Sequence record: SRR31156797_10280
DNA length: 41,240 nt
Reading direction: 5' to 3' (one strand)
Positions 10,002 to 40,978 of this stretch are shown here, one piece after another (within the stretch, counting starts at the first letter, position 1; each line of letters opens with the position of its first letter). Both the position numbers and the translations under genes were made by a program. The notes below the pieces were generated by a model that saw only the letters and a list, made by a program, of their open reading frames with translations, was not told the DNA's origin and searched no databases.

Positions 10002-10610
10002 ATGACCGAGTTCACATCTATCGCTTTGGCACACTTTCTCGCACTGATAAGCCCGGGACCTGATTTTTTCATAATCATATCTGTGGCACTTCGTAACGGT
10101 TCACTCAGAGCGTCGTGGACTTGTCTGGGTATAGCTATTGCAAACGGTGTCTATATCATTTTTGCGCTGGTCGGCTTTACGCTGGTGCGTGAGCATGTCT
10201 GGCTCCTGAATGTTATCAAGGTGTGCGGTGCGCTATTTCTCTGCTATATCGGTGTGATGCTTATCAGGTCAAGCAGACGTGAGCTTTTCGAAGGTGTAGA
10301 GGCGGCAGATGGCGAGAGCAGGGCGGTGAAGCTTTTCACCACAGGCTTTATGTCTGGTATCCTTAACCCGAAGAACCAGATATTCTATATAACCCTCTAT
10401 AGTCTTTTTGTAAGCTCAAGCACAACGTCGTCTGTTCAGATGCTCTACGGCTTATGGATGTTTTCCGTGGTTCTCCTCTGGGATATATTCATCGCCTTCT
10501 CTATTGGCAACAGGCTGGTGAGGAATATTCTTGACTCATATACCTTTAGAATAGAGCAGTTTTCAGGAGGTATAATCATAGCACTCGGAGTTTTTATTAT
10601 TTTTCAGTAA
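10002..10610 (+). CDS. LysE/RhtB family amino-acid exporter
   Basis: SPGPDF and LNPK motifs, hydrophobic. GGGGA SD before ATG 10002. Confidence 0.92.
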   Translation: MTEFTSIALAHFLALISPGPDFFIIISVALRNGSLRASWTCLGIAIANGVYIIFALVGFTLVREHVWLLNVIKVCGALFLCYIGVMLIRSSRRELFEGVEAADGESRAVKLFTTGFMSGILNPKNQIFYITLYSLFVSSSTTSSVQMLYGLWMFSVVLLWDIFIAFSIGNRLVRNILDSYTFRIEQFSGGIIIALGVFIIFQ

Positions 10611-10618
10611 TAGTGGGC

Positions 10619-10648
10619 TTGCTTAAATGTATAGACATTTAGTAAAAT
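10619..10648 (+). promoter_or_regulatory. sigma70 promoter, probably giving a leaderless mRNA
   Basis: TTGCTT-18-TAAAAT, 6 nt before ATG 10655, with no SD. Confidence 0.55.
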
Positions 10649-10654
10649 AGACAG

Positions 10655-11767
10655 ATGAATGAGATACAAACCGTAATAATATTTTTTACATTCTTATTTG
10701 CGGGCAGTCTTTTATATTCTGCCAAAAAGAAGCGCGAGTCACTTTTCAGCTTCCTTGTGAATCTGGAGCTTGAATACGTGGTGGTTGGTCTTGTCCTCTT
10801 TTATATGACAGATAAGTTGCCTATGCCGATGAGCACTTTAAACGGTATAATGCATCTGCTGCTCGCTTTCATGGGGCTTGCACTCGGTACACATTTCAGT
10901 CTTAAGCTACTTATGGGAGTGCCGAGCAGGTTTTACAGTTATACTATTACTGTATATCTAGTTATGCTTCCGCCACTTTATTTCCTTTTAAAATACACCG
11001 GATGCGCTAATCCGCTTATCATGTCGATAGCACTTAATACACTCATGCCTTACTCTTTGAACCTGTCGATGAAGCTTTTCCGTGTGCCGAAGGATAAGGT
11101 ATTCGTTTCAAATCTAACGTCATCACTCTTCCCGCTGGCTACTTTAATCACTTATAGTATAGCCGCAGGAGCTGTTGACTACAGACCTTTTGATTTTATG
11201 AAGTCCATGGTTGCGGCATTCCTTATGTCTACCCTTTTTCTTCATTACGGAAAGTCAAAATCTAAGAAAAATGTTCACAATCTGAGTATTCTTTTTGTGG
11301 TGCTTATTTCAGGTATAGCAATATATTACAAGATTTCTCCTCTGGTGCTCGGTTTTCTCACAGGCTTTATTAAATCCGACACTAAGTATGGTAATATTTT
11401 TCAGAACATATCTATAAGTTTCGAGCGTATTTTATATATTTTCTTTTACGTGGTGCTCGGTGTTATGCTCGGCTATGGTTTTAAGCAGGGGCTGACTTCG
11501 GTGCCGAATGCGGTTGGTATGTATATATGCTTTGTTGTTGTTCGTGTGTTCTTTGCAAAATTCCTCGCTAATAAGATTATGCCGACTAAGGACGAGTGTA
11601 TATGCCTTATCTCTACGGGTATTTTGCCCGCAGTGCTTATGCTCGATTTTGGCACACGTCACGGTTATGACAGCATCGCAAAGCTATTTGTTCCTTTCTT
11701 CCTGTTACATCTGGCAACTGAGATAACAACATATTTTATGGTTAAAAATGAAAGAAAAACTGATTGA
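10655..11767 (+). CDS. Polytopic membrane protein, probably a divergent cation/H+ antiporter (CPA) homologue
   Basis: About 11-12 hydrophobic segments, ISPLVLGF..G and ERILYIFFYV..G resemble CPA helices. Overlaps the next antiporter gene by 20 nt. Confidence 0.6.
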   Translation: MNEIQTVIIFFTFLFAGSLLYSAKKKRESLFSFLVNLELEYVVVGLVLFYMTDKLPMPMSTLNGIMHLLLAFMGLALGTHFSLKLLMGVPSRFYSYTITVYLVMLPPLYFLLKYTGCANPLIMSIALNTLMPYSLNLSMKLFRVPKDKVFVSNLTSSLFPLATLITYSIAAGAVDYRPFDFMKSMVAAFLMSTLFLHYGKSKSKKNVHNLSILFVVLISGIAIYYKISPLVLGFLTGFIKSDTKYGNIFQNISISFERILYIFFYVVLGVMLGYGFKQGLTSVPNAVGMYICFVVVRVFFAKFLANKIMPTKDECICLISTGILPAVLMLDFGTRHGYDSIAKLFVPFFLLHLATEITTYFMVKNERKTD

Positions 11768-12998
11768 TATACTGTCTTTGACAGCAGGACTTTTTTTATT
11801 GTACCTAATACAGACAACTGGAGTCTCAGAGCGTCCTGAGTCACTTTTTATGGTGTTTGGTATAGCTCTCTTTATGGCTTTTGTCTCGGGTAGGCTCCTC
11901 GGCAGTTTCGGTCTGCCCTCTATCACAAGCTTTCTCCTTATGGGGGTTCTGCTGGGGCCTTATGTGATGAATGTTTTCACTACTGATATGATAAATGAGC
12001 TTCGCTTTGTGGACGATGTGGCGCTTAGCATCATCGCCATGACAGCGGGCGGAGAGATAAATTTCCGTAACAGCCGTATAAATCTGGGAAAGGCCGGTAT
12101 ATTTGTTGTTATACAGGTACTGGTGATATTTTTTATGGTTTTCGGTGTGCTTATGGTTACAAAAAATCTCTTCCCGCAGGGGATATTTGTTTCGATGGCG
12201 GGTGTTGTTTTCATGGCTGTGATAGCGAATGCTACGTCACCGTCAACCACTGTGGCGGTTATCATCGAGTCTGAGGCGAAGGGTAAGATGACTGACTACA
12301 CCCTCACCAGTGCGATCATGAAAGATATCCTTATCATAGTGATGTTTGCATTTTTTCTTTCAATATACAGCTCCAGCGGAGATGTGACTGTGGGCTCTGT
12401 GATAATGAAAGAGACTTTATCAATGTTTGCAGGTTTTATCCTTAGCATAATTGTAATCGCTTATAAGAAATATGTTGGCGCTAATCAGGGTGTTTTCATA
12501 ATACTGTTTACGATAGTAATGACTTGGCTGGCTAAAAGTATGCACCTTAACCCGCTTCTGGTATTCCTTTTTGCTGGTATAGGTGTGAACAACTTTTCCA
12601 AATTTGGTCATTCACTCGTCCAGAATATCGAGGATAATTCAGGAATTATTTATCTGATCTTCTTTTTCATCGCTGGGACGGTGGTTAACCTCCCTGCCCT
12701 TAAGGTTATGTGGGCGGCGGCTCTCGGCATAGTTTTACTCCGTACATTTGCGACATTCGCTGGCTGCTTCATAGGCGGGATGGCTATTAAAGAAGATAAA
12801 TATATAAAGAACTATTCATTTCTTGGTTTTATAGGTCAGGCTGGGGTCAGTATTGGCTTTGCGAAGATTATCGGTGCGAGCTTTGACGGCTGGGGTGTTC
12901 AGTTTCAGACGCTTGTTCTTGCTATAGTCGCTATCAATCAGATAGTGGGGCCTATCGGTTTCAAGTGGGCTCTTAGAAAAGCTGGCGAAGCAGGTTAG
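11748..12998 (+). CDS. Cation/H+ antiporter (Na_H_Exchanger family) without cytoplasmic domain
   Basis: GLPSITSFLLMGVLLGP, AGGE, ATSPSTTVAV, KD, IFFFIAG, QAGVSIG motifs. Confidence 0.85.
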   Translation: MKEKLIDILSLTAGLFLLYLIQTTGVSERPESLFMVFGIALFMAFVSGRLLGSFGLPSITSFLLMGVLLGPYVMNVFTTDMINELRFVDDVALSIIAMTAGGEINFRNSRINLGKAGIFVVIQVLVIFFMVFGVLMVTKNLFPQGIFVSMAGVVFMAVIANATSPSTTVAVIIESEAKGKMTDYTLTSAIMKDILIIVMFAFFLSIYSSSGDVTVGSVIMKETLSMFAGFILSIIVIAYKKYVGANQGVFIILFTIVMTWLAKSMHLNPLLVFLFAGIGVNNFSKFGHSLVQNIEDNSGIIYLIFFFIAGTVVNLPALKVMWAAALGIVLLRTFATFAGCFIGGMAIKEDKYIKNYSFLGFIGQAGVSIGFAKIIGASFDGWGVQFQTLVLAIVAINQIVGPIGFKWALRKAGEAG

Positions 12999-23861: not shown

Positions 23862-24164
23862 ATGTTCGGACTGGGAATGTCAGAGATAATCCTTATCATG
23901 GCTGTGGCACTTATCGTCATAGGCCCTAAAAAGCTTCCAGAGGTTGCTAAGGGGATGGGTAAAGGATATGCTGAATTTAAGAAATATATGACAGATTTTA
24001 AAGAGGCAGTTAATATTGACTTAGATGCGGAGCCGAAGAAACCTACACCTAAGAAGGCGAATGCTGATGATCTTTATGATGAACACTATAAGGATGTTAC
24101 AAAAGCAGAACCTGAAGAGGAAAAGGGAGAAAAAGCTGATGATAAGGTGAAAGAGGATGCCTAA
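23862..24164 (+). CDS. tatB: Sec-independent translocase subunit TatB (TatA/B family)
   Basis: MFGLGMSE...IGPKKLP (E8 and GP hinge are TatB-like), upstream of tatC. Confidence 0.8.
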   Translation: MFGLGMSEIILIMAVALIVIGPKKLPEVAKGMGKGYAEFKKYMTDFKEAVNIDLDAEPKKPTPKKANADDLYDEHYKDVTKAEPEEEKGEKADDKVKEDA

Positions 24165-24939
24165 AGATAACGAGCAGGATGTAAATGAACAAGGTGTAGA
24201 GTCGGCGCTGCCACTTACTACTCACCTTGAAGAGCTTCGTAAAAGATTAATAAGGGTGCTTATTGTTCTTGTTGTTGTGTTCTGTGGTGTTTATTCGCAG
24301 AGCCAGATTTTCATGGACTTCATCACAGCACCTATAGTTCCTATACTTCCGGAAAACTCTACAATGGCTATACTTAAGCTGACTGAGGGTTTTTTTACAG
24401 AGCTTAAACTTTCTGCAATTATTGCAGTGTTTTTTAGTATGCCGATCATCTTTTATCAGGGTTGGAAGTTTATCGCTCCGGGGCTTTACGCTCAGGAGAA
24501 GAAGTATGTGTTTTCCTTTGTACTGATGTCGTCGGTGCTCTTTTTTCTCGGTGCGGCATTTGCATACTATGTTGTTTTCCCTTTCGGTTTCGAATTTTTT
24601 CTTCAGTACGCTGAAGGTTATGTGACAGCAAACCTGTCTATACAGTGGTATCTTAGCTTTGTTACAAGGCTTATTATGGCTTTCGGGCTGGTTTTTGAGA
24701 TGCCTGTATTTGTCCTTTTCCTGGCTAAGATGGGGCTTGTTACAGCGCAGATGATGAGAAAGCACCGCAGGTACGCTTACTTTGGTATTATAGTCTTTTC
24801 GGCTATTCTGACACCTCCGGATGTTTTCACACAGCTTATGATGTCAGGTCCTATGGTAATCCTTTATGAGTTCAGCGTTATAATCGCAAAAGTTTTTGGA
24901 CGCAAAAGGGAGATAAAAGAAGAAGACGTTTATGCATAA
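24157..24939 (+). CDS. tatC: Sec-independent translocase subunit TatC
   Basis: HLEELRKRL, FIAPGLY..EK, FEMP, TPPD. Confidence 0.97.
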   Translation: MPKDNEQDVNEQGVESALPLTTHLEELRKRLIRVLIVLVVVFCGVYSQSQIFMDFITAPIVPILPENSTMAILKLTEGFFTELKLSAIIAVFFSMPIIFYQGWKFIAPGLYAQEKKYVFSFVLMSSVLFFLGAAFAYYVVFPFGFEFFLQYAEGYVTANLSIQWYLSFVTRLIMAFGLVFEMPVFVLFLAKMGLVTAQMMRKHRRYAYFGIIVFSAILTPPDVFTQLMMSGPMVILYEFSVIIAKVFGRKREIKEEDVYA

Positions 24940-25921
24940 AAATATGAAAGATAGGTTCGGCAGAGAGATCAGATACCTGAGAGTCTCTGTCACTGATAGA
25001 TGTAATTTCAAATGCAAATACTGTATGCCTAATGACAATTTTCAATGTATCCCACACGAAAACATCCTCTCATACGAAGAGATGCTTTTCGCTATCAATG
25101 TTTTTACCTCACTTGGGGTGCAGAAGGTTCGTGTGACAGGCGGTGAGCCTCTTGTGCGAAAAAATGTAGGCGAATTTCTCACTAATCTCGGCAAGATCGA
25201 CGGGCTTGAGGAAGTGACACTTACTACTAATGGCGCACTCCTGAAAAAATATACTGACGAGATCAAAGCGGCTGGTATCAGGCGTATTAATGTCAGCCTC
25301 GATTCCCTTAAAGACGAACGCTTTAAAGATATTACCGGCGGATTTAATCTTGAGACTATCATCGATGGTATTAAGCACGCCCAGAGGAACGGCATAGGTC
25401 CTGTTAAAACCAATATGGTAGTCATAAAGGGTTATAACGACGACGAAATTTTGGATTTTTGCGAATTTTCAGCTAAGAATAAAATTATTACAAGATTTAT
25501 AGAGTTCATGCCGGTTGGTAATTTCAATGAGTGGAAGGAAGAGAACATCATGCTTGGGGAAGATATTCTTAATATTATCAAGTCTAAGTATGGGGTTACA
25601 GAGGTACGGAAAGCGAAGCTCGGCGGTCCTGCTAGAAACTATGAGCTGGATAATGGTGCAGCGATAGGTATAATAACACCAATCTCAAACCACTTTTGCA
25701 ATGACTGCGATAAGCTGAGGCTCACTTCAGACGGAAAGCTCCGTCCGTGTCTACTCTCTGATCAGGAGATCGACCTCGTTCCTGCTATTAAAGCGGGTGA
25801 TAAAGAGGGGCTGATAAAGCTTATTGCTGATGGTCTGAATATAAAAGATGAAGAACACAAGGTGCTTTCGGAGAAGAGAGATGACGGATACAAACGAACC
25901 ATGCACAAGATCGGAGGCTGA
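24932..25921 (+). CDS. moaA: GTP 3',8-cyclase (molybdenum cofactor biosynthesis)
   Basis: YLRVSVTDRCNFKCKYC, TGGEP, RFIEFMP, second cluster CNDC...PC, C-terminal IGG. Start 24932 or 24944. Confidence 0.97.
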   Translation: MHKNMKDRFGREIRYLRVSVTDRCNFKCKYCMPNDNFQCIPHENILSYEEMLFAINVFTSLGVQKVRVTGGEPLVRKNVGEFLTNLGKIDGLEEVTLTTNGALLKKYTDEIKAAGIRRINVSLDSLKDERFKDITGGFNLETIIDGIKHAQRNGIGPVKTNMVVIKGYNDDEILDFCEFSAKNKIITRFIEFMPVGNFNEWKEENIMLGEDILNIIKSKYGVTEVRKAKLGGPARNYELDNGAAIGIITPISNHFCNDCDKLRLTSDGKLRPCLLSDQEIDLVPAIKAGDKEGLIKLIADGLNIKDEEHKVLSEKRDDGYKRTMHKIGG

Positions 25922-25922
25922 T

Positions 25923-27176
25923 TTGAAGATAGCTTACGGTGCTGAACATATAGATATAAATCTTAGTAAGCCTGCTGATGTGATCGAAATTAAGGCGGAT
26001 AAACCTGAGATGACAGACGAGCAGATAATGAAAACACTTGAAGGTGAAGGTGTTTACAGCTTCGGGATTAATGAGATTATCGAAGATGCTGAAAAGATTT
26101 TGCTTATCCTCCCTGATGGCACACGAAAGTCAGGTGCGGAGCGTTTCCTCTCCCGGATAATAAATAAAATAGAAGCTCAGGGTAAAGATTTTAGCCTTAT
26201 TGTCGCAGTTGGGACACACAGACAGCCTACAGAGGATGAACTTAAAACTATATTTACACCTGAGATTTACGACAAATATAAAGATAAACTGATCGAGCAC
26301 GACTGCGAAAATTATGACGAGATGGACTTTTACGGTGTTACTAAGCGCAAGACAACTATCCTCATAAATAAGGCTTATCGTGAGCACGATACAATCGTAA
26401 CAATTGGCTCTGTGAGTTATCACTATTTCGCTGGATACGGCGGTGGTCGTAAGCTCATTGTGCCGGGGCTTGCATCTAAAAAGACAATAATGAGCAACCA
26501 TAAGCTCGCCCTGAATACACTTTCAAGACAGCGTGACGATAAAGCAGTGACAGGCAACATGAAACATAACCCAGTTAATGACGACCTTGTTGAGATGGTG
26601 ATGATATCACGCTCGGCACATACGTTTTTTGCTGTTAATACTCTGTTAGGAAGTGCTGGCGAGGTGATAGATATGGTCTGCGGTGACATTTTCATGTCTC
26701 ATATGCAGGCTGCTGACAGGCTTGATGAAATATCTGCTGTAGCTACTTCTAAGAAGTATGATGTGGTTTATCTCTCAGCAGGCGGCTCACCGAAAGATAT
26801 AAATATGGTGCAGGCACAGAAGTCACTTGATAGAGTTACTCCTCTCCTTAATGAAGGGGCTAAAGTGGTATTTTTCGCTGAGTGCGCAGATGGTTACGGA
26901 AATAGCTATTTTGAAGAATTTTTCGACAGGGATTCTGCTGATGTTATGCTGGCTGAACTTCTTGACGATTATCAGATCAATAGACAGACAGCTTACAACC
27001 TTCGCTCAAACCTTGAGAAATTTGAAGTATACCTGTATTCTGAATTTGATAAGGCGGCTTGCGACAGGATGGGTTTTAAGAAATTAACTAACATAGACGA
27101 AGCAGTAAAGCTTGCGGACGGCGTAGAGGGTGTGGCTTTCATCCCGCAGGCTGATAATATATATCCGGCTAAGTGA
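25923..27176 (+). CDS. LarA-superfamily nickel-pincer-dependent racemase/epimerase (DUF2088)
   Basis: PDGTR, GTHR, H.FAGYGGGRK..VPG, NH, QAQK motifs. TTG start at 25923 preceded by GGAGG inside the moaA end. Confidence 0.85.
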   Translation: MKIAYGAEHIDINLSKPADVIEIKADKPEMTDEQIMKTLEGEGVYSFGINEIIEDAEKILLILPDGTRKSGAERFLSRIINKIEAQGKDFSLIVAVGTHRQPTEDELKTIFTPEIYDKYKDKLIEHDCENYDEMDFYGVTKRKTTILINKAYREHDTIVTIGSVSYHYFAGYGGGRKLIVPGLASKKTIMSNHKLALNTLSRQRDDKAVTGNMKHNPVNDDLVEMVMISRSAHTFFAVNTLLGSAGEVIDMVCGDIFMSHMQAADRLDEISAVATSKKYDVVYLSAGGSPKDINMVQAQKSLDRVTPLLNEGAKVVFFAECADGYGNSYFEEFFDRDSADVMLAELLDDYQINRQTAYNLRSNLEKFEVYLYSEFDKAACDRMGFKKLTNIDEAVKLADGVEGVAFIPQADNIYPAK

Positions 27177-29561: not shown

Positions 29562-30467
29562 ATGAATAACAGAACATTAACCCACCTGAAACAACTCGAA
29601 TCCGAGAGTATACACATCATCAGAGAGGCAGTTGCAGAGGCTGAAAACCCTGTGATGCTTTACTCCATAGGTAAAGATTCATCAGTTATGCTGCATCTGG
29701 CGATGAAGGCGTTTGCTCCCGGCAAGTTACCTTTTCCGCTTATGCATGTTGATACCACGTGGAAATTCAAAGATATGATCACTTTTCGGGATAAAATGGC
29801 TGAAAAGCACGGCTTTGACCTGATTGTTTATAAGAATGAAGAGGGTGTCGAGCAGGGTATAGGTCCTTTTACCCATGGAAGCAAAGTGCATACTGACGTT
29901 ATGAAGACGGAAGCTCTGAAAAAGGGACTTAATAAGCATAAATTTGATGTGATTTTTGGCGGAGCGAGGCGTGACGAGGAGAAATCCCGTGCGAAAGAGC
30001 GCATCTTCTCTTTCAGAGATAAAAACCACCGCTGGGATCCGAAAAATCAGAGACCGGAGCTTTGGAATATATATAATTGTCGAATAAATAAAGGGGAGAG
30101 CATCCGTGTTTTCCCTCTCTCGAACTGGACAGAGCTAGATATCTGGCTTTACATTCACCTTGAGCAAATACCTGTTGTTCCGCTTTATTTCTCCGAGAAG
30201 CGACCAGTAGTAAATAAGGATGGAGTGCTCATCCTTGTGGACGATGACCGAATGCCACTTGAGGGCTTAGAAGTTATAGAGAAGCTGGTACGGTTTAGAA
30301 CTCTCGGCTGTTATCCACTTTCGGGGGCGGTTGAGTCTGAGGCGGCTACTTTGCCTGATATCATACAGGAGATGCTGCTCACAAAGGTGTCTGAGAGACA
30401 GGGGCGGATAATCGATTTCGACCAAGCTGGCTCTATGGAGAAGAAAAAAATCGAGGGGTATTTCTAA
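29562..30467 (+). CDS. cysD: Sulfate adenylyltransferase subunit 2
   Basis: [47 protein letters not shown]. Confidence 0.97.
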
Positions 30468-32347
30468 TGTCGCATCAGTCAGACCTCATCGGTAAAGATA
30501 TACATGCATACCTGAAAGAGCATGAGAACAAAGAACTTTTAAGGTTTATCACCTGCGGAAGTGTGGACGACGGGAAGAGTACGCTCATAGGCAGGCTTCT
30601 GCACGACTCTAAGCTTATTTACGAAGACCAGCTCGCATCTATCCGTAGTGATAGTAAGTTCAGAGGGGATGGTGAGCTCGACCTCGCACTCCTTGTGGAC
30701 GGATTACAGGCGGAGCGAGAGCAGGGGATTACTATCGATGTTGCTTACCGGTTCTTCTCCACCAAGAAGCGTAAATTCATCATCGCAGACACTCCTGGGC
30801 ACGAACAGTACACAAGGAATATGGCGACCGGTGCATCCACTGCGAACCTAGCGATTATACTTATTGATGCCCGACAGGGAGTTCTGACCCAGACTAAGAG
30901 GCACTCGTTTATAGCAAGCCTGATGGGGATAAAGCACGCCATTGTCGCTGTAAATAAAATGGATTTAGTTGATTATTCAGAAGAGACTTTTGAAAATATT
31001 AAGGCAGACTATGAAGCTTTTGCAAAAGATATAGATATTAAAGATATACAGTTTATTCCGCTATCCGCCCTTAAAGGTGACAATGTTGTTGATAAGAGTG
31101 GGAATATGGCGTGGTACGATGGTGCGCCTTTAATGGAACTGCTTGAGAACATTCCGGTGGGTGATTCTTACGACTTTGATACATTTTGTATGCCTGTGCA
31201 GTATGTTAACCGACCTAACTTAAACTTCAGAGGGTACTGCGGGACTGTCGCCTCTGGTGTTGTTAAGCCGGGTGATGAGATAACTATTTTACCATCCGGT
31301 GTAGCAAGCAGAGTGAAATCTATTGTGACCTATGACGGTGATATCGATGAGGCTTTCCCCCCTATGTCTGTGACACTAACCACCGAGGACGAGATTGACA
31401 TAAGTCGTGGTGATATGATTGTGCATTCTGGTAGTTCGCCGGAGGTTGGTGACTGTTTTGATGCGATGATCGTCTGGATGAATGATGAGCCTCTGATAAA
31501 AAATAAACCTTACGACCTTAAGCGTGCATCCACAGTGGTGAACGCCTATGTCGATGAGATACATTACAAAGTTGACGTGAATACCTTAGAGCATAAACCA
31601 GCTGAAAGGCTGGAGCTTAACGAGATAGCTTATGTGCGGATAAATCTCTCCACAAAGATAGAATACTCCGCAAGGCGCAATGTTCGTGGCTTTATCCTTA
31701 TCGACAGGATAAGTAATAACACTTTCGGTGCAGGGATGATAAGCGACGTTCGTGAGTCGAAAAATGTTATCTGGCATGACCACAAGGTGGGAAAAGAGGG
31801 GCGTGTTGCGCTTAAAGGGCATAAGCCTGCTGTGCTATGGCTGACAGGGCTTTCCGGCTCAGGTAAATCTACTGTGGCAAATGAGCTTGAGGATAGATTG
31901 CAGAAGATGGGGGTTCACACCTATCTCCTTGATGGAGACAATGTCCGTCACGGTTTATGCAAGGATCTTGGCTTCTCTGACGCAGACAGGGTTGAGAACA
32001 TCCGCCGTGTGGGTGAGGTTGCGAAACTCTTTGCAGATTCCGGGATACTTGTGATAACAGCTTTTATCTCTCCATTTAAAAAGGACAGGGATATCGTCAG
32101 AATGATACTTCCTGAAGATGAGTTCATAGAGGTTTTTGTTGATGCGCCGCTAGAGGTTTGTGAGCAGCGTGATCCGAAATCACTTTATAAAAAAGCACGC
32201 AAAGGTGAAATTAAATCGTTTACTGGCATCGATTCTCCTTATGAAGCACCGGAAGCACCAGATATTCATCTTCGTACAGATAAGTTTTCAGTGGCGGAAT
32301 CAGCAGAAAGAGTTATGAAATTTCTAAAGGATAATAAATACATATGA
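30467..32347 (+). CDS. cysNC: Bifunctional sulfate adenylyltransferase subunit 1 / APS kinase (CysN-CysC fusion, NodQ-like)
   Basis: [19 protein letters not shown] in the GTPase domain; [34 protein letters not shown] in the kinase domain. Confidence 0.96.
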
Positions 32348-33159
32348 AATATGATGAAAAGCTTCTATATGAAGTGATAGAGATAGCTCAACAGGCGGGC
32401 AGAGAGATTATGGAAATCTATGTAAAAGATTTTTCTGTTGAGTATAAAGACGATAACTCGCCACTCACTGAGGCTGATAAACACTCTAATGAAGTTATAA
32501 TAGCTGGTCTTGAAAAGCTGGACAGGCAGTATCCTATACTGTCAGAAGAGAACAAAGCTGTAAACTATTCAGAGCGAAAAGAGTGGAAAACATTCTGGCT
32601 GGTTGACCCTATTGATGGGACAAAAGAATTTATCAAAAAGAATGGTGAATTCACGGTTAATATAGCACTCGTGGAAGATGGTGCACCAGTTATAGGTGTT
32701 GTTTATGCTCCTGCTATGGAGCTGCTTTACTACGGCATGAAAGGCTTTGGAGCGTTTCGTAAAACTGGTGATGTAGTTGAGAATCTTCCTGCTGAAAAGT
32801 GCTACGGAAAGGTTGTGCGTGTAGTCGCCTCTAGGTCGCACCTTAACGAAGAGACCTCAGATTTCATAGAAAAAATTGCTAGACAGTTTCCTGACTGCGA
32901 GATAGAGAAGGTGTCTAAAGGTAGTTCTCTGAAGCTCTGCATGGTGGCTGAAGGGAGCGCTGATATTTATCCACGTATAGCACCGACTATGGAGTGGGAT
33001 ACCGCCGCAGCGCAAGGTGTTGTTGAGGCGGCAGGGAAATCGGTATACAAATATGAACAATTTCCAGTAAACAGAATTGATTTTAATAGTGAACTAAATT
33101 GTGAAAAGCTTTGCTATAACAAAAAGGATTTGCTTAATCCATTTTTTATTGTGATTTAG
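32344..33159 (+). CDS. cysQ: 3'(2'),5'-bisphosphate nucleotidase
   Basis: [40 protein letters not shown]. Confidence 0.95.
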
Positions 33160-33519: not shown

Positions 33520-34869
33520 CTACTTTCTTAAGCGTCTGCTTAAAGTTGACTGAGATATCCCTATCATAGCGGCGGCTTTGGTCTGGTTATTCCCTGCCAG
33601 CTTCATGGCATCACAAATAAGCTGATCTACAACTTCGTCAACTTTTGGTAACGGACTATCATTAAGATCAATTTTTGTTTCATTGGATGTCAGGTAACTT
33701 TGCAGGTCTTTTGCCTGAATTTTATTTTGAGTACGTGCCAGAACATCAAAGCATATCGCTCTTAATTGACGCGTATTTCCGGGAAAAGAATAGGCGCTAA
33801 CTAAATCCAGAGCATCCTGAGTTATCTCAGGGACACTTCTCTGGAACTCTTGTGATGCCTGACTGATAAAATGATAAAACAAAACCTGAATATCCTCAGG
33901 TCTTTCCCTCAGAGGAGGTATATGTACAAAGTGAGTGTTCAGTCTGTAATATAAATCCTGACGAAACTCGCCCGCTCTGCATTTGTCCTCCAGATTTTGA
34001 TTTGTGGCAAAGATCAGTCTTGCTCGGGACTTAGAAGACGCATCAGACCCAAGCTGCTGGTACTCTCCATCCTGTGCGAGATACAAAAGCTTCACCTGAA
34101 GAGTATTTGGAAGATCACCTATTTCATCAAGGAACAATGTACCGTCATCTGCCTTTTGTATGGCTCCCGGGCGGTTTGAATCGGCACCCGTAAAGGCACC
34201 TTTCCTGTGTCCGAAAAGCGTATCAGAGAAAGCATGATCATCAAGCCCGCTCACGTTTATAGACACAAAAGGTCTGTCCGGGCGGGACAGTTCCGCCGTT
34301 GCTTTGGCGAGTACACCTTTTCCAACACCGCTTTCACCTGTTATCAGTATTGGGTAAGGGCTCACTGCTAAGGCTGTCAGATATTTAAATACCGAATGCA
34401 TACGGCTACTCTTAGTAATGAAGTCCTTAAACACCGGAAATTCCTCACTAATAGAAAACAGTCCGTCTTTCAGCGCATGATTTTCTTTTTCAAGCTGATG
34501 TATTTTTATAATGCGTTTAATATTACTTATCAGTTCTTCTATGAGAGATGTTTTCACCATATAGTCCATAGCGCCCAGCTTTCCGCAATTCAGCGCCATA
34601 TGGATATCGTTCACCCCTGTCATAATGATCACGGGCAGACGAGGAAATTTCTGTTTGATCCTGTGCAACACATCTTTTCCAGAGACATCTCCGAGCATTA
34701 AATCCAGAAAAACCAGATCTGTATCTCCCTTTTTTAAAATATCAAAAACTTCGTCTTCTCTTTGAGCCGTGCGTATATTTTCAGATGAAGTAATATCATA
34801 TTGCAAAAGCGTCCGTCTGAAAGAGACAAGCCAGTCCCTTTCGTCATCTACCAGAAGGATTGATGTCAT
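33520..34869 (-). CDS. sigma54-dependent response regulator (NtrC family enhancer-binding protein)
   Basis: Receiver LLVDDE...LDL, Walker A GESGVGK, GAFTGA, LFLDEI, FRQDLYYRL, Fis-type HTH. Confidence 0.95.
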   Translation of the reverse strand: MTSILLVDDERDWLVSFRRTLLQYDITSSENIRTAQREDEVFDILKKGDTDLVFLDLMLGDVSGKDVLHRIKQKFPRLPVIIMTGVNDIHMALNCGKLGAMDYMVKTSLIEELISNIKRIIKIHQLEKENHALKDGLFSISEEFPVFKDFITKSSRMHSVFKYLTALAVSPYPILITGESGVGKGVLAKATAELSRPDRPFVSINVSGLDDHAFSDTLFGHRKGAFTGADSNRPGAIQKADDGTLFLDEIGDLPNTLQVKLLYLAQDGEYQQLGSDASSKSRARLIFATNQNLEDKCRAGEFRQDLYYRLNTHFVHIPPLRERPEDIQVLFYHFISQASQEFQRSVPEITQDALDLVSAYSFPGNTRQLRAICFDVLARTQNKIQAKDLQSYLTSNETKIDLNDSPLPKVDEVVDQLICDAMKLAGNNQTKAAAMIGISQSTLSRRLRK

Positions 34870-36764
34870 AATGTCTCCTTAGGGAAGAATATCCTGACAC
34901 GTGTACCTTCCCCTTCTTCAGAATCCAAGATATAGTATCCCCGATGTTCTTTTACAATACTGGCGACTATTGACAGCCCCAGCCCCGTGCCGTTTTTCCG
35001 TGTAGTATAAAATGATTCAAAAGCTTTCTGCTTCACTTCGGGGTTCATGCCGCAGCCTTCGTCCTCTATTGAAAATACGACATACTTGCCGTCTTCAGAT
35101 TCGCTCAGACTGCATGTTATAGCCTGTTCACTATCGGTAAGGGCGTAGCAGGCATTTTGGATAAGGTTGATAATGATCTGCTCTATGTGCTGAGCGTGTC
35201 CCCTGACAGGAGCAACCGGTTCATCTATTCGACAAGTAAAATTTCTGGTGAAGCTTTTGACGAAATACCCCACAAAACGAACAGAATCATTAAGAATAAG
35301 TTTCAAATCCACAAGTGCATAGGCATCATCACGTTTTTTACTGAATGTTTTGAGATCATTAACAGTGTTTATGATGCGCAGTATATTTTCTGTAATAATT
35401 GTATGTGCAGATATCTCTTCCTGACGTGCATCAACCCAGCTAAGCCCGGCAAAGCGTCTTGATGAATCAGGTGTCTCCAGATTTTTATGTATATCATTTG
35501 AAAGCTTTTGCAGAAAATCGATGTTGTGCATGATTAGTCCCGCCGGATTATTAATCTCATGGGCTATATTTGCAGCCATATTTCCCAGTGCGGTCATTCT
35601 GTCTAAGACGAGTAACTCATCTCTTTGACGTACTTTTTCAGTGATATTAGAAGCAACAATCAAAAGCGGCTCACTGCCTTTTTCCAAAATAATACCCGAA
35701 ACCTCCCACGTCTCTGTATTGTCGAGGAAGAGTTTTGTTTCAAATGATTTGTTTGTGGCAATAGCCTGCTCTATCTCATTACTGATCAGCTCAATTTTAA
35801 AATTAGCATTGGAAGATGCCGCATTTGACCAGACAGGCATCCCATTTAAATTTATCAGGTAGATTTGCTCAGGCAATACATCCAGAAGCATCTGCAGTAG
35901 CCCGGTCAAAGTGTTGAGGGATGATGTCTTCTGCTGTACTCGCATGTGAAGTGATTTGTTCCATAAAAGTATGAGAAATATAGTGAGAACTACAGTTAGC
36001 ACGATATGTATTATATAATTATGCCACAGAGGCGTATCATGCGAACGTGACCACTTTTTCATTATTTCAAAATAGTCACCGGATGCTTTCAGCTCTTCCA
36101 TCGCATCGTTCAGTCTAGCATAGAGTGCACTATTGGCTTTATTCATTGCAAAGCCATATATCGTTGGTATTATAGGGAAACCGCAGATCTTTATCTCATA
36201 ATGTTTCGGCAGATTAAGAATAGCCGGAAGACTTGCAACGAAAAAATCACCTCTTCCAGCCAGGTAATCTTCAACCATGTCTTCATGGTTTTGATAACCG
36301 ATAAGTTTCAGATTATATTCATCTTTATTCTTCTGGAGATAGCTGTTTGTATAGCTCCCCTTCATGAAAAGTACAGTCTTGCCCCTCCAGTCCTCCATAC
36401 TGTCTATTGGAGGATCGTCTATCCTGTTCACTGCGTATCTGTATATTACTACAGACTGCTCTATGTATGCGGCAAATTGATCGGCTTCAGGTATCGGGGA
36501 AATGCTCATTATGGTGATCTCGTTGTTCTTCAGCTTATAAAGAAGCTCGTCTCGCTCACCTGAGGTGATAGAGTAGGTACATCCGGCCTTTTTAGCCATC
36601 TGTTTAAGAAGATCGACGTTCATACCGTGGGGTACACCATTGTCGTCGATCCATTCATAGGGTTTATATGGGTCAACCCTTAGCCCATAGACAATATTGC
36701 AGCTATCCTGTGCGTATACCGCAGCAGAAAGTAGAATAAAAATTAAGATAATTATATGTTTCAT
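34866..36764 (-). CDS. Sensor histidine kinase with periplasmic family-3 binding domain
   Basis: Signal peptide, PBPb-like domain, TM, PAS-like region, AHEINNP, NLIQNA, DEGCG, GTGLGL. ATGA overlap with the regulator. Confidence 0.93.
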   Translation of the reverse strand: MKHIIILIFILLSAAVYAQDSCNIVYGLRVDPYKPYEWIDDNGVPHGMNVDLLKQMAKKAGCTYSITSGERDELLYKLKNNEITIMSISPIPEADQFAAYIEQSVVIYRYAVNRIDDPPIDSMEDWRGKTVLFMKGSYTNSYLQKNKDEYNLKLIGYQNHEDMVEDYLAGRGDFFVASLPAILNLPKHYEIKICGFPIIPTIYGFAMNKANSALYARLNDAMEELKASGDYFEIMKKWSRSHDTPLWHNYIIHIVLTVVLTIFLILLWNKSLHMRVQQKTSSLNTLTGLLQMLLDVLPEQIYLINLNGMPVWSNAASSNANFKIELISNEIEQAIATNKSFETKLFLDNTETWEVSGIILEKGSEPLLIVASNITEKVRQRDELLVLDRMTALGNMAANIAHEINNPAGLIMHNIDFLQKLSNDIHKNLETPDSSRRFAGLSWVDARQEEISAHTIITENILRIINTVNDLKTFSKKRDDAYALVDLKLILNDSVRFVGYFVKSFTRNFTCRIDEPVAPVRGHAQHIEQIIINLIQNACYALTDSEQAITCSLSESEDGKYVVFSIEDEGCGMNPEVKQKAFESFYTTRKNGTGLGLSIVASIVKEHRGYYILDSEEGEGTRVRIFFPKETL

Positions 36765-36769
36765 CAGTA

Positions 36770-36798
36770 TTTATAACACATAAAAAAAATGAATGCAA
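36770..36798 (-). promoter_or_regulatory. sigma70 promoter of the kinase-regulator operon, probably leaderless
   Basis: TTGCAT-17-TATAAA with extended TG, 5 nt before ATG 36764, no SD. Confidence 0.55.
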
Positions 36799-36835
36799 TT
36801 TGCATTAATTATGCAACATGCAATGCGTTATGCAT
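36793..36835. promoter_or_regulatory. Putative upstream activator sequences: three TGCR-N3-TGCA boxes
   Basis: TGCA-ATT-TGCA (36794), TGCA-ACA-TGCA (36812), TGCG-TTA-TGCA (36824). Confidence 0.6.
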
Positions 36836-36886
36836 AAAAGGCGTCGTCGTTAAAACTTAAACTACTAATAGATATAGTCTTATCTT

Positions 36887-36903
36887 TTGGCAACAACTTT
36901 GCT
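36887..36903 (+). promoter_or_regulatory. sigma54 -24/-12 promoter
   Basis: TTGGCAACAACTTTGCT with exact GG-N10-GC spacing, next to an EBP gene. Confidence 0.85.
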
Positions 36904-36940
36904 TTATCTAAAACTGAAATATTTTTAACAGGAGCAAATT

Positions 36941-37501
36941 ATGCCGAGTTTTAAAAAATGCATAGTACCGCTGGTTTTGATTTTTGTCCTGACGCTATGC
37001 AACGTTGCCATATCAAAGGGCAATATACCTACCGAATGGAGCATGGATACTGATTGCACTTTATGCCACACCCACGAGGCAGATACTTTAAAAAATGAAA
37101 AAAGCCTTATCTACGCCCACAGTGATCAAAGCTGCACAGCATGCCATTCACAAGAAAAAAAGCTGGCTGTTTCGCACAGGAAAATGTCAGCAGATACCTC
37201 AAAACTGAAACGTCTGAAAAGAACTACCGTTGCTGAGGCGAACTGCGTTGCATGTCATGGCGAATGGGAAGACCTTGCTGAACAGACAAAGAATACAACT
37301 CTGGTAAAGGATTCTGAGGGAACAGTTGTCAATCCCCACAGGGTAAGGACAGATATAAACAAGAAGAATCAGCACGACCTGGTTACATGCACAAATTGCC
37401 ACAGGATGCATACAGAATCAAATATTGAAAAAGCTGCAAACGAGGAGTGCCGCACCTGTCACCACAAAGGTGTATACACATGCGGTACCTGCCACGATTA
37501 A
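36941..37501 (+). CDS. Periplasmic hexaheme c-type cytochrome
   Basis: Signal peptide and six CxxCH motifs (CTLCH, CTACH, CVACH, CTNCH, CRTCH, CGTCH), AGGAG SD. Confidence 0.92.
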   Translation: MPSFKKCIVPLVLIFVLTLCNVAISKGNIPTEWSMDTDCTLCHTHEADTLKNEKSLIYAHSDQSCTACHSQEKKLAVSHRKMSADTSKLKRLKRTTVAEANCVACHGEWEDLAEQTKNTTLVKDSEGTVVNPHRVRTDINKKNQHDLVTCTNCHRMHTESNIEKAANEECRTCHHKGVYTCGTCHD

Positions 37502-37564
37502 GCAAATATATAAGTGAAATAGACCTTACAGGTTTTATTGAAAGTAATTGTAAAGGAGATAAAT

Positions 37565-39268
37565 ATGTCTGAAAAAAAAAACGGTATTGGAAGCAAAATG
37601 TTATCCAAAAGAGATTTTATGAAGGTATCCAGCTTGACAGTTGGAGGTGCCATATTGGCTGCTGGTTGTGCATCGGCATCAATCGCTTCGACTGGCTCTA
37701 AACCTGTACAAAAGTGGGATTACGAAGCTGATGTTATCGTAATCGGTACTGGCCCTGCCGGGCTTAGCTGCGCCGCTGCTGCTGCTGAAAAAGGTGCGAC
37801 TGTTATTGCTATTGAAGCAAATGATAAGATAGGTGGTAAAGGTATTCTCTCAGGAGGTAACCTTGGTATTGGTGGCGGAACCCGTATGCAGAAAGCTCTT
37901 GGATTTGTAGAGAGAGCAGATACTATTTATGAAGATCGTACTGTTCCGAATCTGCGTAAAGATGCGACAATGACAGTTGAGACTGTTGATAACCGGAAGG
38001 TCACAATGGGTATGTGGCGTAAAATATCCGGCGCGGAAGATGGCGAAGGAATGTCTCGTGCTTTTGCCGACAACAGTCTGGATACATGGAACTGGCTGGA
38101 CGGAATGGGCTGCGCATTCGTAAAAGCTAAAAAAAGCAAAATGTCCCAAGTTTACCGAGGCACACGTTACTTTACTCTCACTGCACGTAATTTCATAGAT
38201 CGTGACAATGCAAAATCAGGTGACCTGAAATCAGGTGGAGCAGGTATTATATGGCCTCTCTACGACAGAGCAGATGAAAACGGTGTTAAGTTCATGCTCA
38301 GCTGCAAAATGACAAGAATTATCCGTGAAGAAAATGATGGCCGTGTTCTGGGTATAGAAGCAAATTACAAAGGTAAAACGATATATATGAAGGGCAAGAA
38401 AGCCGTATTTCTTGGCACCGGAAGCTGGAATGGTAACAAAAACCTTAAACAGCTCTTTTTGCCGTGGCTCACAAAATATCCACATATCACAGGCGAACCA
38501 TATGTGAAAAATGACGGTAAAGGTATCGAAGCTGCGATCCAGATCGGCGCATCACTTTCTACTGACCGTGGTAGTGACTGGCACGGTTGGCACCGCCACC
38601 CTGGCTCACGCTGGCACCGCTCCGGAGCACCATTCGGAATCAGGGGCTTCGAAGACCCGTTTCTTGAAAGCGAAAGCATCTATGTTAACGCCGAAGGTAA
38701 CCGATTTATGAACGAAGAAATAGGCGAAGACAACCCTGCGTGGGTAGGTGGAGCAAAACCATTTTACTTCGCACAAATATGCGCTACACAAACCATAGAT
38801 GAAGACGGCCCTGTAGTGTGGATCATCATGGATGAGACATCTCGTCAGAAACAAAAGCTCGAGTTTAAACCAGGCGACAATGTTGAAAAATTCATGTACG
38901 GCAAAGGCAACACTCTTCGAGAATTGGCATCAGCCATCAATGTTCCTGCTGATAACCTCACTGTTTCTGTTAAACGTTACAACGAACTCGTAGCAAAAGG
39001 AAAGGACGACGATTTTGATAAGCAGGAAATGACTGCAAGAATCATTAAGCCACCTTTCCATGCTATTAAATGGGGTATCCAAAAACACAATACTCTCGGC
39101 GGGGTAACAATCAACCCTCAAGCACGTGTTCTCGACTGGGAGCGTAACCCTATTCCTGGTCTTTATGCTGCCGGAGAATGTGCTGGCGCTATGGACCTTA
39201 TCGGGCTGGCAAGACCTTTGGTTTTCGGTCGCATTGCAGGTATGACAATAGCAAAAGAAGAAAAGTAA
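37565..39268 (+). CDS. Exported FAD-dependent oxidoreductase of the fumarate reductase/flavocytochrome c (FAD_binding_2) superfamily, substrate unknown
   Basis: AAGGAG SD before ATG 37565, SKRDFMK Tat-like motif, LAAGC lipobox, WDYEADVIVIGTGPAG, GNRFMNE, HNTLGG, GLYAAGE. Confidence 0.9.
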   Translation: MSEKKNGIGSKMLSKRDFMKVSSLTVGGAILAAGCASASIASTGSKPVQKWDYEADVIVIGTGPAGLSCAAAAAEKGATVIAIEANDKIGGKGILSGGNLGIGGGTRMQKALGFVERADTIYEDRTVPNLRKDATMTVETVDNRKVTMGMWRKISGAEDGEGMSRAFADNSLDTWNWLDGMGCAFVKAKKSKMSQVYRGTRYFTLTARNFIDRDNAKSGDLKSGGAGIIWPLYDRADENGVKFMLSCKMTRIIREENDGRVLGIEANYKGKTIYMKGKKAVFLGTGSWNGNKNLKQLFLPWLTKYPHITGEPYVKNDGKGIEAAIQIGASLSTDRGSDWHGWHRHPGSRWHRSGAPFGIRGFEDPFLESESIYVNAEGNRFMNEEIGEDNPAWVGGAKPFYFAQICATQTIDEDGPVVWIIMDETSRQKQKLEFKPGDNVEKFMYGKGNTLRELASAINVPADNLTVSVKRYNELVAKGKDDDFDKQEMTARIIKPPFHAIKWGIQKHNTLGGVTINPQARVLDWERNPIPGLYAAGECAGAMDLIGLARPLVFGRIAGMTIAKEEK

Positions 39269-39286
39269 ACATACTATATTATTAAT

Positions 39287-39316
39287 CTGGTGCGGCATTT
39301 TATATGCCGCCTCCAG
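39287..39316 (+). terminator. Hairpin (probable terminator) after the flavoprotein gene
   Basis: CTGG-T-GCGGCAT-loop-ATGCCGC-CT-CCAG with a weak T-rich tail. Confidence 0.55.
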
Positions 39317-39522
39317 GTTATTATTTCATCTGATTAATTTCACAACTCCTCTCTTATAGGTTGTGATATCACCGTCTTGTAAACGCTTAATAATCTTCAC
39401 TTAAACACCTCATAATAATTCAAATTATAATATTTGCTAATGAACAAATACATATTTATTGTCCATTATAAGATGGAGTTATCTAATTTTTGGTCAGTTT
39501 TGAGCGGAGTTAGTCACGATTC

Positions 39523-40006: not shown

Positions 40007-40978
40007 ATGAAGTCTGATAATTATATTGAAATAGTCACATCTCCCATATGTGGATTAAATCTGATGCCACAGAAGACACTTGAGTCAATAAGAGAAGTTC
40101 TTGTTAATCATTACAGAAAAGTAAGAATTTCGATTATTCAAGAAGAAAATGACCTAATGAAACTTATTGAAAACAGTCCAGACATAGTAATTTCTGGAAT
40201 CAAATGTTTAGGCTTTGATTCAGCATCCATAAAGAGGGATTCCGATAAGAATATTTGGTTTTCTGAATATCTTGATCAGAATGGGATTAAATATTTGGGT
40301 TCTTCAAGGGAGGCTCTTGAGTCAGAATATAATAAGAGTTCCGCTAAGAGTATACTAAGAAGAAAGGGATTGAAGACTGCAGACTATTTTATAGCTCTTC
40401 CTGATCAATTCAATGCGAGTGAAATAGAACTTGAGTATCCGCTCTTTATAAAGCCATTATATGAAGGTGATTCAAGAGGAGTTGATGCAAAATCCTTAGT
40501 TTATGATTTTGAAAGTTATGAAGAGAAGGTTCGTGATGTATACGATAATCAAGGCACACCATCCATGGTAGAAAAATATCTTTGCGGAAAAGAGTACACT
40601 GTTGCAGTAATGGAAAATCAATATAAAAAACTTCAAGTATACCCTGTAGAGCTTCTTGCACAAAAGAACTGTCAGGGACTAAGAATATTAGGCTTTACAG
40701 ATAAAATTGAAGATAAAGAACGTGCTTTATTTATTGATGATGAGAACACCAGAGGGCTGATATCAAACTTTGCTTTAGATTGCTTTAACGGATTAGGGGC
40801 AAATGGATATGGAAGGATTGATATTAGAATGGATGAATTTGGGCGGCCAAATTTTCTTGAGGCAAATCTAATACCTGGACTAGGGCTTGGCTATTTCTAC
40901 AGATGTTACATGCTCAATGGTGGAGATAGTTATGAGCGGATGATTCTTGATTTAGTTGAGACTTGTCTTTCGGAATAA
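40007..40978 (+). CDS. ATP-grasp ligase, divergent D-Ala-D-Ala ligase-like
   Basis: YLGS, NK, YPLFIKP..EG.S.G, EKYL.G.EYTV, GRIDIR, FLEAN..PGL. GAGGAG SD. Confidence 0.85.
   Translation: MKSDNYIEIVTSPICGLNLMPQKTLESIREVLVNHYRKVRISIIQEENDLMKLIENSPDIVISGIKCLGFDSASIKRDSDKNIWFSEYLDQNGIKYLGSSREALESEYNKSSAKSILRRKGLKTADYFIALPDQFNASEIELEYPLFIKPLYEGDSRGVDAKSLVYDFESYEEKVRDVYDNQGTPSMVEKYLCGKEYTVAVMENQYKKLQVYPVELLAQKNCQGLRILGFTDKIEDKERALFIDDENTRGLISNFALDCFNGLGANGYGRIDIRMDEFGRPNFLEANLIPGLGLGYFYRCYMLNGGDSYERMILDLVETCLSE

Follow-up and report, generated by a model that had tools for sequence, protein, structure and literature searches.

A divergent exported flavoprotein with a six-haem cytochrome and a sigma-54 two-component system: probably a respiratory reductase whose organic acceptor is neither fumarate nor urocanate

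The DNA analysed here, a window of 41,240 nucleotides (nt) from sequence record SRR31156797_10280, carries between positions 33520 and 39268 a four-gene unit in which a two-component system of the sigma-54 type lies opposite a multihaem cytochrome and an exported flavoprotein. The unit probably specifies a terminal reductase that is inducible, works outside the cytoplasm and belongs with the split flavocytochromes c, its organic acceptor being neither fumarate nor urocanate. Within a large and well-known enzyme family it forms a branch not yet characterised, and it is not a new kind of system; its particulars are a sharply bounded clade, a His/Trp-rich hinge, a glutamate in place of an arginine, a six-haem partner of its own, and a sigma-54 system whose sensor is of family 3. 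The first-pass annotation of this region had described a self-contained respiratory module with a periplasmic reductase or dehydrogenase for a new organic substrate. What it had observed is confirmed below, as are export, fold, the lost arginines and the lack of a characterised cluster in its interpretation; the new substrate does not follow from the lost arginines, the self-containment is overstated, and sensing of the substrate by the family-3 domain of the kinase is a supposition.

Four open reading frames (ORFs) fill the interval in the divergent arrangement that had been proposed. On the minus strand lie the genes for a sensor histidine kinase (34866-36764; 632 amino acids, aa) and a sigma-54 enhancer-binding response regulator (33520-34869; 449 aa), the stop of the first overlapping the start of the second by 4 nt; on the plus strand, beyond an intergenic region of 176 bp, lie those for a six-haem c-type cytochrome (36941-37501; 186 aa) and a flavoprotein with a signal of the twin-arginine translocation (Tat) type (37565-39268; 567 aa). 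The flavoprotein frame is open from a TTG at 37538 to 39268 (+), and its start is most likely the ATG at 37565, because AAGGAG precedes this codon and the resulting 567 aa are the length of the four closest relatives. Flavoprotein residues are numbered here on the 568-residue translation of 37562-39268; subtracting 1 gives the count from the ATG. In a Deferribacterales genome (locus L001) all four genes recur in this order and arrangement, with 57% identity over 611 residues for the kinase and 84% for the flavoprotein, but with other flanking genes: a molybdopterin oxidoreductase and a 4Fe-4S protein on one side (254-3544) and an OprD-type porin on the other (10272-11567); the unit in the window is flanked by cysQ and an ATP-grasp gene instead. 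Since their order is the same despite these different flanks, the four genes behave as a unit.

The flavoprotein matches Pfam FAD_binding_2 (7.8e-44), and its AlphaFold (AF2) model (predicted local distance difference test, pLDDT, 83; predicted template-modelling score, pTM, 0.84) has the two-domain FAD_binding_2 fold with clamp domain, in agreement with the flavin adenine dinucleotide (FAD) fold read earlier by eye. It belongs to the flavocytochrome c / fumarate reductase superfamily, yet every NCBIfam model that it matches scores under its cut-off: TIGR01813 at 194 bits against 285.45, PRK06481 at 122 against 542 and sdhA_frdA at 34.7 against 567. Inspection by eye identified a Tat-type export motif, SKRDF; the form [KR]R-x-F stands before a hydrophobic stretch in 48 of the 49 relatives aligned, and KRNF in the other, which bears out the periplasmic location proposed. 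The flavoprotein contains no CxxCH and thus no fused N-terminal four-haem domain, and no FMN_bind domain is among its Pfam matches. A lipoprotein anchor was considered and not assumed for the window protein: a cysteine occupies the relevant column in 30 of 49 relatives, but is missing from the closest ones, P0002-P0005 of the Geovibrio group.

The active site was examined in three ways: by phmmer against the sequences of the PDB, by a 49-member family profile against the same library, and by Foldseek with the AlphaFold model. All three agree that the nearest solved structures are Ifc3 (1qo8), Fcc3 (1qjd, 1d4d) and UrdA (6t85/6t86), at 22-26% identity and with a Foldseek E-value of about 1e-34 (probability 1.00), followed by 3-ketosteroid and cyclohexanone dehydrogenases. 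No characterised enzyme groups tightly with it: identity to any solved structure is at most 26%, and the NCBIfam scores tell the same story. Counting along the 1d4d alignment gives the literature numbers His365, Thr377, Glu378, Arg381 and Arg402, and PDB titles name mutants at these positions.

On this numbering, Gln363-Ala-His365-Pro of Fcc3 corresponds to His344-Arg345-His346-Pro347, where His344 and Arg345 are invariant in the family and His346 is at least 90% conserved; the HP of the unusual W/H-rich segment picked out in the first-pass annotation thus aligns with His365-Pro366. Arg402-Asp403 corresponds to Glu389-Asp390: Glu389, at least 90% conserved and part of IGEDNP (segment RFMNEEIGEDNPAW), takes the place of the proton-donor arginine whether Fcc3, Ifc3 and UrdA are aligned with the single sequence or with the profile. 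His504-His505 corresponds to His509-Asn510, both invariant, in the motif HNTLGG, which aligns with HHTMGG. The arginine of 'GANR' in Fcc3 (544 by our count, which we take to be the Arg545 of the literature) has no counterpart; the window protein reads AGAMD-LIG, and in HMMER alignments to Fcc3, Ifc3 and UrdA its GECAGAMDLIG lacks these residues, which are an insertion relative to the family profile. Sequence alignment with FccA and UrdA, two of the enzymes suggested for checking the reading by eye, leaves both arginines absent. The active-site histidines His365 and His504 are kept as His346 and His509. Glu389 is followed by a 15-residue insertion (PAWVGGxKPFYFAQ), and the FAD domain has about 40 residues more than that of Fcc3, among them an invariant YRGxRY. 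Judged from the sequence, the proton relay of Fcc3 is not recognisably kept, and the loss of the arginines rules out that this is a fumarate or urocanate reductase of the canonical kind; a glutamate at Arg402, the deletion of the Arg544/545 loop and an asparagine at His505 exclude the canonical reaction on fumarate or an enoate.

The family to which this protein belongs has sharp limits. A word-indexed search, from which 120 matches were listed, gave 74 clusters, nine of which are fragments, between 51 and 92% identity; below these the identity drops at once to 37%. Named members among the matches listed are Geovibrio thiophilus (86%), Desulfitobacterium hafniense, D. chlororespirans and other Desulfitobacterium (69%), and Coriobacteriales or Coriobacteriia (54-71%). 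An exhaustive search of 1.84 billion representatives at 50% identity found 10,238 superfamily members at E <= 1e-3, and the single full-length representative of the family among them, P0065, scored 631 bits, the next full-length protein scoring 270 bits at 37% identity. Within the family, conservation is strong: all 49 aligned relatives have the hinge DWHGWHR unchanged, which lends substance to the W/H-rich segment noted earlier, and the same holds for all of D335, R336, G337, D339, W340, H341, G342, W343, H344 and R345, for Y198, R199, G200, R202, R381, M383, E385, K508, H509, N510 and T511, and for E539, M544 and D545. The hinge together with a short arginine-free loop was seen in all 65 near full-length relatives inspected. 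Outside the boundary the hinge is looser, reading DLHGWHRHWG, DHHSWHR or DEHVWHR in the relatives at 37%; the next 45 or so relatives mostly have the short arginine-free loop, and a few have the classical 'HGANRVGGNA' with HHTMGG. In a quick FastTree phylogeny of 65 family sequences, the window protein and four outgroups, the Geovibrio group is nested within the diversity of other lineages, a topology that tentatively fits lateral spread of the family. Look-alikes in the ESM Atlas fell in generic clusters of FAD-dependent oxidoreductases and flavocytochromes alone, and a literature search of limited coverage found nothing in print on the family or on a Geovibrio flavocytochrome.

Some other proteins turned up by these searches deserve description. 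Seven relatives (P0050, P0051, P0054 and P0056-P0059) are longer versions of about 680 aa, extended at the C-terminus by some 110 residues in which Ala, Lys and Val abound; this extension lacks CxxCH and resembles a surface or immunoglobulin-like tail, not a cytochrome. Matches P0078-P0120 form a separate and far more populous family, some of its clusters exceeding 100 members, of exported flavoproteins of about 596 aa, 30-34% identical to the query; they share the short arginine-free loop, are without the hinge motif, and carry the motifs GGGTS, HDTRSGL and GGFSLHGLARC; their database names are uninformative. In two loci from Coriobacteriales or Coriobacteriaceae the flavoprotein frame is broken or incomplete: in L007 (2919-4720) it is present as two overlapping ORFs of 243 and 417 aa, and in L010 (7117-9227) the match ends at query residue 487. 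Either pseudogenes or errors of assembly may account for this.

The cytochrome has six CxxCH motifs behind an N-terminal signal or lipoprotein-like sequence and matches Pfam Cytochrom_c3_2 over residues 93-175 (2.2e-07). Six haem motifs, five histidines and Cys20 are conserved among 33 homologues. Foldseek with its AF2 model (pLDDT 83.5) found nothing in the PDB at E <= 0.001, the weak top matches being the haem domain of Fcc3 (E 0.6-0.9) and small tetrahaem cytochrome. Lipoprotein cysteines lie in a lipobox; Cys20 is at least 90% conserved and in Coriobacteriia has a lipobox-like context (LAGC/ACAP), for which reason the cytochrome is probably tethered to the membrane on the outside.

To see what accompanies the flavoprotein elsewhere, ten related loci were compared: L001 from Deferribacterales and nine from Coriobacteriia, with none from Desulfitobacterium or Geovibrio thiophilus. 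A homologous multihaem ORF adjoins the flavoprotein gene in seven of the ten, upstream of it in L001, as in the window, and downstream in Coriobacteriia, and these neighbouring cytochromes align to the window protein over the six haem motifs and the five conserved histidines. Six CxxCH are present in L001, L002, L004 and L007; L009 has three, with aligned motifs of variant spacing in the place of the other three, and the cytochrome ORFs of L003 and L006 are interrupted by contig ends. (L009 has, besides, a second multihaem cytochrome 2 kb downstream, at 11944-12654.) A profile search found 30 clusters of cytochrome homologues, the few named ones being Geovibrio or Coriobacteriia. The regulators, on the other hand, differ: five of the nine Coriobacteriia loci have, instead of kinase and activator, a divergent LuxR-type gene of about 500 aa. 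As the cytochrome is kept across phyla and the regulator differs by phylum, flavoprotein and six-haem cytochrome are the stable core, to which a host-specific sensor is attached.

In the window this sensor is the kinase. Its translation comprises a signal or anchor helix, a periplasmic family-3 solute-binding domain (SBP_bac_3, 4.1e-16, residues 32-239), a transmembrane helix, a linker, an H-box and an ATPase domain (HATPase_c, 8.9e-23), the HisKA match staying at 20.7 bits, under the 26.9 cut-off. The sensor domain matches amino-acid-binding proteins and the sensor of a Geobacter-type kinase, 3h7m, at 1e-17 to 1e-19 (8.8e-18 for 3h7m). In proteins of the GlnH/HisJ type an arginine presumably binds the alpha-carboxylate of the ligand and an aspartate its alpha-amino group; in a pairwise alignment with the glutamine-binding domain 6h30, at about 20% identity, Asp and Ala occupy these backbone-binding Arg and Asp positions. 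As weak evidence, the substitutions speak against an ordinary amino acid as ligand, and they favour no particular alternative.

The activator has receiver, AAA+ and Fis-type helix-turn-helix domains (Response_reg 1.1e-19, Sigma54_activat 2.3e-52, AAA_lid_14, HTH_8). Its translation contains the motifs GAFTGA and GESGVGKG, the second of which we take to be the Walker A motif. No NCBIfam equivalog is reached at cut-off, ntrC coming closest (307 bits against 558.6). In front of the cytochrome gene lies a -24/-12 element of the sigma-54 type, TGGCAACAACTTTGCT (36888-36903, plus strand), whose end is 38 nt from the cytochrome ATG and whose two blocks, TGGCA and TTTGC, recur at the corresponding position of the L001 intergenic region around a different spacer; this element and the domains of the four ORFs uphold the divergent operons and sigma-54 promoter of the first-pass annotation. 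Two imperfect palindromes built on ATGCAA/TTGCAT (36788-36837), one at 36788-36810 with 91% complementarity and one at 36809-36837 with 79%, lie 50-100 bp upstream of the -24 element; ATGCA/TGCAT blocks are kept in L001 here too, and the palindromes are plausible candidate sites for the activator. They were located by a repeat search; a mis-spaced pattern, ATGCAANNNTGCAT, had not matched them. At the other end, 12 nt past the flavoprotein stop, a strong hairpin (39280-39323, plus strand; -22.4 kcal/mol, z = -6.15, none of 200 shuffles equally stable) is likely to be the operon terminator, although the T-run behind it is weak and a consensus terminator scan did not report it.

These parts suggest how the unit could work. 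A small molecule in the periplasm would bind the family-3 domain of the kinase, which would phosphorylate the activator; this in turn would bind the palindromes and open the -24/-12 promoter, the parts being visible and their action supposed. Cytochrome and flavoprotein, on a common strand and 63 nt apart, would be co-transcribed up to the hairpin. Going by the signals in their sequences, the flavoprotein would be exported by Tat, folded and with its FAD, and the cytochrome by Sec. By analogy with the Shewanella flavocytochromes, electrons from the quinol pool would pass through a quinol dehydrogenase encoded elsewhere to the six-haem cytochrome and on to FAD, whose N5 would hand a hydride to an organic acceptor that is neither fumarate nor urocanate. 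The proton might come from a His/Glu set (His341, His344, His346, Glu389, His509) instead of the usual arginine, and the substrate might be held by residues of the clade: Tyr198-Arg199-Gly-x-Arg202, Arg336, Arg345, Trp340, Trp343 and Trp351. We take the enzyme for a reductase because its fold and its closest solved relatives are those of periplasmic reductases, and for an inducible one because the exchange of regulator for LuxR in Coriobacteriia matches the pattern of acceptor-induced respiratory flavin reductases, in so far as that pattern is set out in the part of the source available (bioRxiv 10.1101/2022.12.26.521950).

Several points weigh against this reading. The roles given to the active-site residues follow from conservation and alignment, and the loop at Thr377-Arg381 of Fcc3 is variable in the family and aligned differently by phmmer and by the profile. 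The cytochrome is without a place beside the flavoprotein in three of the ten related loci, L005 (which has a contig end upstream), L008 (with both flanks present) and L010, and no Desulfitobacterium name occurs among the 30 cytochrome clusters, few of which are named. Beyond cytochrome and regulator, nothing is conserved in the ten gene neighbourhoods that would give a clue to the substrate. The promoter has the -24 GG and -12 GC of a sigma-54 two-component system, but the statistical support of the lone match is weak: TGGCAACAACTTTGCT is the sole match to TGGCA-N6-TTGCW in the 41-kb window, where chance alone would give 0.36, and at least one match occurred in 30 of 100 shuffles. The match on its own is therefore not significant, and its weight comes from position and conservation. 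Finally, no quinol-oxidising partner or quinol dehydrogenase is present in the unit, nor does any other ORF of the window have three or more CxxCH; the link to the quinone pool must therefore lie elsewhere, and "self-contained" was too strong a word for the module.

Within the reductase reading, one possibility, which can be put forward only tentatively, is that of an ordinary 2-enoate reductase of the cinnamate, acrylate or methacrylate type, with the substrate carboxylate bound by relocated arginines (Arg199/Arg202 of YRGxRY, Arg336 or Arg345): a known substrate class with a new active-site solution. The family does have several invariant arginines outside the canonical positions and keeps His346 and His509, and the available part of bioRxiv 10.1101/2022.12.26.521950 describes the arginine-less clades CirA, CirC and CrdD as reducing cinnamates by means of clade-specific essential residues. 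The lost arginines, then, do not imply the new organic substrate that had been deduced from them, and a new substrate class is not established, because ordinary cinnamates are reduced by superfamily clades that lack them. What speaks against a 2-enoate is that a nearly invariant glutamate and several invariant acidic residues are found where anion-binding arginines would be expected; moreover, none of the proteins found was recognised as closely related to the characterised cinnamate reductases, and no Eggerthella lenta protein occurs among the named matches of the 120 relatives listed, most of which are nameless.

A bolder proposal, and a rather doubtful one, is that the DWHGWHR/Glu389 family carries out non-enoate chemistry on an unrecognised acceptor, for example by reducing a neutral or cationic and probably aromatic compound, or by splitting it reductively in the manner of Ber; with the same degree of doubt, it adds that Deferribacterota, Bacillota and Actinomycetota have exchanged the enzyme-cytochrome pair and that each host has added its own sensor. 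The clade is a good target in any case, with a sharp boundary (from 54% identity down to 37% for the next relative), strong conservation over three phyla and a six-haem partner of its own, and its Geovibrio version comes with a ligand-binding sensor in the periplasm, open to direct screening for the inducer. The organic acceptors of anaerobes are still being discovered enzyme by enzyme, and most superfamily members are without an assigned substrate. Identifying this one would add one acceptor to anaerobic respiration and would also show an active site that uses His and Glu for two arginines; if it turned out to be an ordinary cinnamate or the like, the result would be incremental, and if the non-enoate proposal were true it would be a respiratory electron acceptor not recognised before.

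A different direction of electron flow seems unlikely. The enzyme would then be a periplasmic dehydrogenase of the KstD, cyclohexanone dehydrogenase or TcuA type, passing electrons from its donor through the six-haem cytochrome to the respiratory chain or to extracellular acceptors. Here too there is evidence that tells against a reductase: the family profile matches a cytoplasmic enzyme, 3-ketosteroid delta4-(5alpha)-dehydrogenase (4at0), at 2.3e-44, and KstD and cyclohexanone dehydrogenase as well; the N-terminal FAD segment of 4at0 is very similar (58.8 bits over residues 42-118); and KstD and TcuA models are among the NCBIfam matches. The 3-ketosteroid and cyclohexanone dehydrogenases are presumably also without the fumarate-reductase arginines, which we count in favour of this alternative. 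The scores of these models nevertheless lie far under the family cut-offs (PRK12844, 144.8 bits against 789; PRK07843, 119.8 against 788), and the other hosts, Desulfitobacterium and Coriobacteriia, live anaerobically and are noted for their many reductase paralogues. The flavoprotein also has a signal peptide, which according to the part of bioRxiv 10.1101/2022.12.26.521950 at hand most characterised respiratory members of the superfamily possess and which is rare in the non-respiratory ones, these being mostly cytosolic. That the enzyme is after all a fumarate (C4-dicarboxylate) reductase, as database names of relatives such as 'fumarate reductase/succinate dehydrogenase flavoprotein' and the best PDB matches would have it, is very improbable, since no family member examined has either of the two arginines or His505 and TIGR01813 and sdhA_frdA stay under cut-off.

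The DNA around the unit is of mixed content. Near the left end of the window, on the minus strand, lie three tandem paralogues (97-1215, 1473-2591 and 2641-3759) encoding Peripla_BP_6 binding proteins of the branched-chain amino-acid type, 372 aa each. Another histidine kinase (5543-7150, plus strand; 535 aa) likewise has an SBP_bac_3 sensor in the periplasm and is only about 20% identical to the kinase of the unit; the neighbouring ORFs scanned contain no response-regulator domain, and the next gene encodes a Na+/H+ exchanger with TrkA domains. Genes for TatC, MoaA and a LarA-like protein of the lactate racemase family follow in a row at 24157-27176 (plus strand); as listed, the ORF for MoaA shares 74 nt with the LarA-like one, whose start is therefore probably later. 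Directly upstream of the unit, at 29562-33159 (plus strand), is a sulfate-activation cluster of cysD, fused cysN/cysC and cysQ, of which cysQ is the sole gene checked that reaches an NCBIfam equivalog cut-off. Downstream, from 39324, comes a 680-bp stretch with no ORF of at least 60 aa and no Rfam match, and then a D-Ala-D-Ala-ligase-like ATP-grasp gene (40007-40978), under all NCBIfam cut-offs; the segment 39324-41000 has 35% G+C against 41-46% elsewhere in the window and may be foreign DNA. Rfam and transfer RNA scans of the window found nothing.

Among known systems, KstD, 4at0 and cyclohexanone dehydrogenase 8am3 share the superfamily fold and a similar N-terminal FAD segment, but all NCBIfam models of the KstD family fall far short of their cut-offs on the window flavoprotein; KstD-type enzymes and cyclohexanone dehydrogenase are, moreover, cytoplasmic and are not known to have a cytochrome partner. 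On the regulatory side, NtrBC-type sigma-54 systems with periplasmic family-3 sensors, of which 3h7m is an example, have the same domain order, a GAFTGA activator and a -24/-12 promoter; what sets the window sensor apart from proteins of the GlnH/HisJ type is that the backbone-binding residues which we suppose these to have are not kept.

The solved enzymes Fcc3/FccA and Ifc3 (1qjd, 1d4d, 1qo8) are alike in being periplasmic and in their FAD and clamp fold (Foldseek E about 1e-34, TM-score up to 0.65), and Fcc3 also in the equivalents of His365 and His504 and in haems of the Cytochrom_c3_2 type. They differ in sequence (23-26% identity), in the Arg402 that is here Glu, the Arg544/545 loop that is here deleted and the His505 that is here Asn; and where Fcc3 has a fused four-haem domain, the window has a separate six-haem protein. 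UrdA (6t85-6t88) is likewise an extracytoplasmic respiratory reductase with the same catalytic fold, 6t86 being the top Foldseek match (1.9e-34). At 22-23% identity, however, both of its arginines are absent from the window protein in the 6t85 alignment. UrdA itself, in the available parts of bioRxiv 10.1101/2022.12.26.521950 and bioRxiv 10.64898/2026.04.22.720169, keeps Arg411, Arg560 and His520, so that urocanate reductase was not a fitting example of an altered site; in the latter source its electrons arrive through a flavinylated FMN domain, and such a domain was not found among the Pfam matches here.

Similar in gene organisation are the split flavocytochromes of Shewanella oneidensis. 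In the part of bioRxiv 10.64898/2026.04.22.720169 that could be consulted, SO_3056/3058, SO_3300/3301 and others have their FAD and haem c subunits in separate neighbouring genes, as here, and are periplasmic, with substrates mostly still unknown. That source also describes an Arg/Arg/His triad as conserved in 2-enoate reductases of that kind. The Shewanella enzymes keep the triad, in an operon with a lyase that makes the acceptor, whereas the window enzyme has lost it, has no such lyase beside it and is paired with six haems.

A parallel in overall design is offered by the secreted FAD_binding_2 'flavin reductases' of Little et al. (bioRxiv 10.1101/2022.12.26.521950), which, as the available part of that text has it, lie beside regulators of the two-component or transmembrane LuxR type, each enzyme being induced by its acceptor (urocanate, itaconate, shikimate, resveratrol and cinnamates); only the clade that includes UrdA conserves the two arginines. 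To these may be added Ber, a fumarate-reductase homologue of Eggerthella lenta with a divergent LuxR regulator, which in the corresponding part of Bess et al. (bioRxiv 10.1101/357640) cleaves benzyl ethers. Compared by description, the DWHGWHR hinge and the Glu at the Arg position are not among the active-site residues named for CirA, CirC, CrdD and Ber in what is available of these sources. The likeness lies in the plan: these too are secreted FAD_binding_2 enzymes with clade-specific active sites and an adjacent regulator, the Coriobacteriia orthologues of the window family have the same divergent LuxR-type neighbour, and the window itself shows the two marks of a flavin-reductase module, an export signal on a FAD_binding_2 enzyme and a transcriptional regulator next to it.

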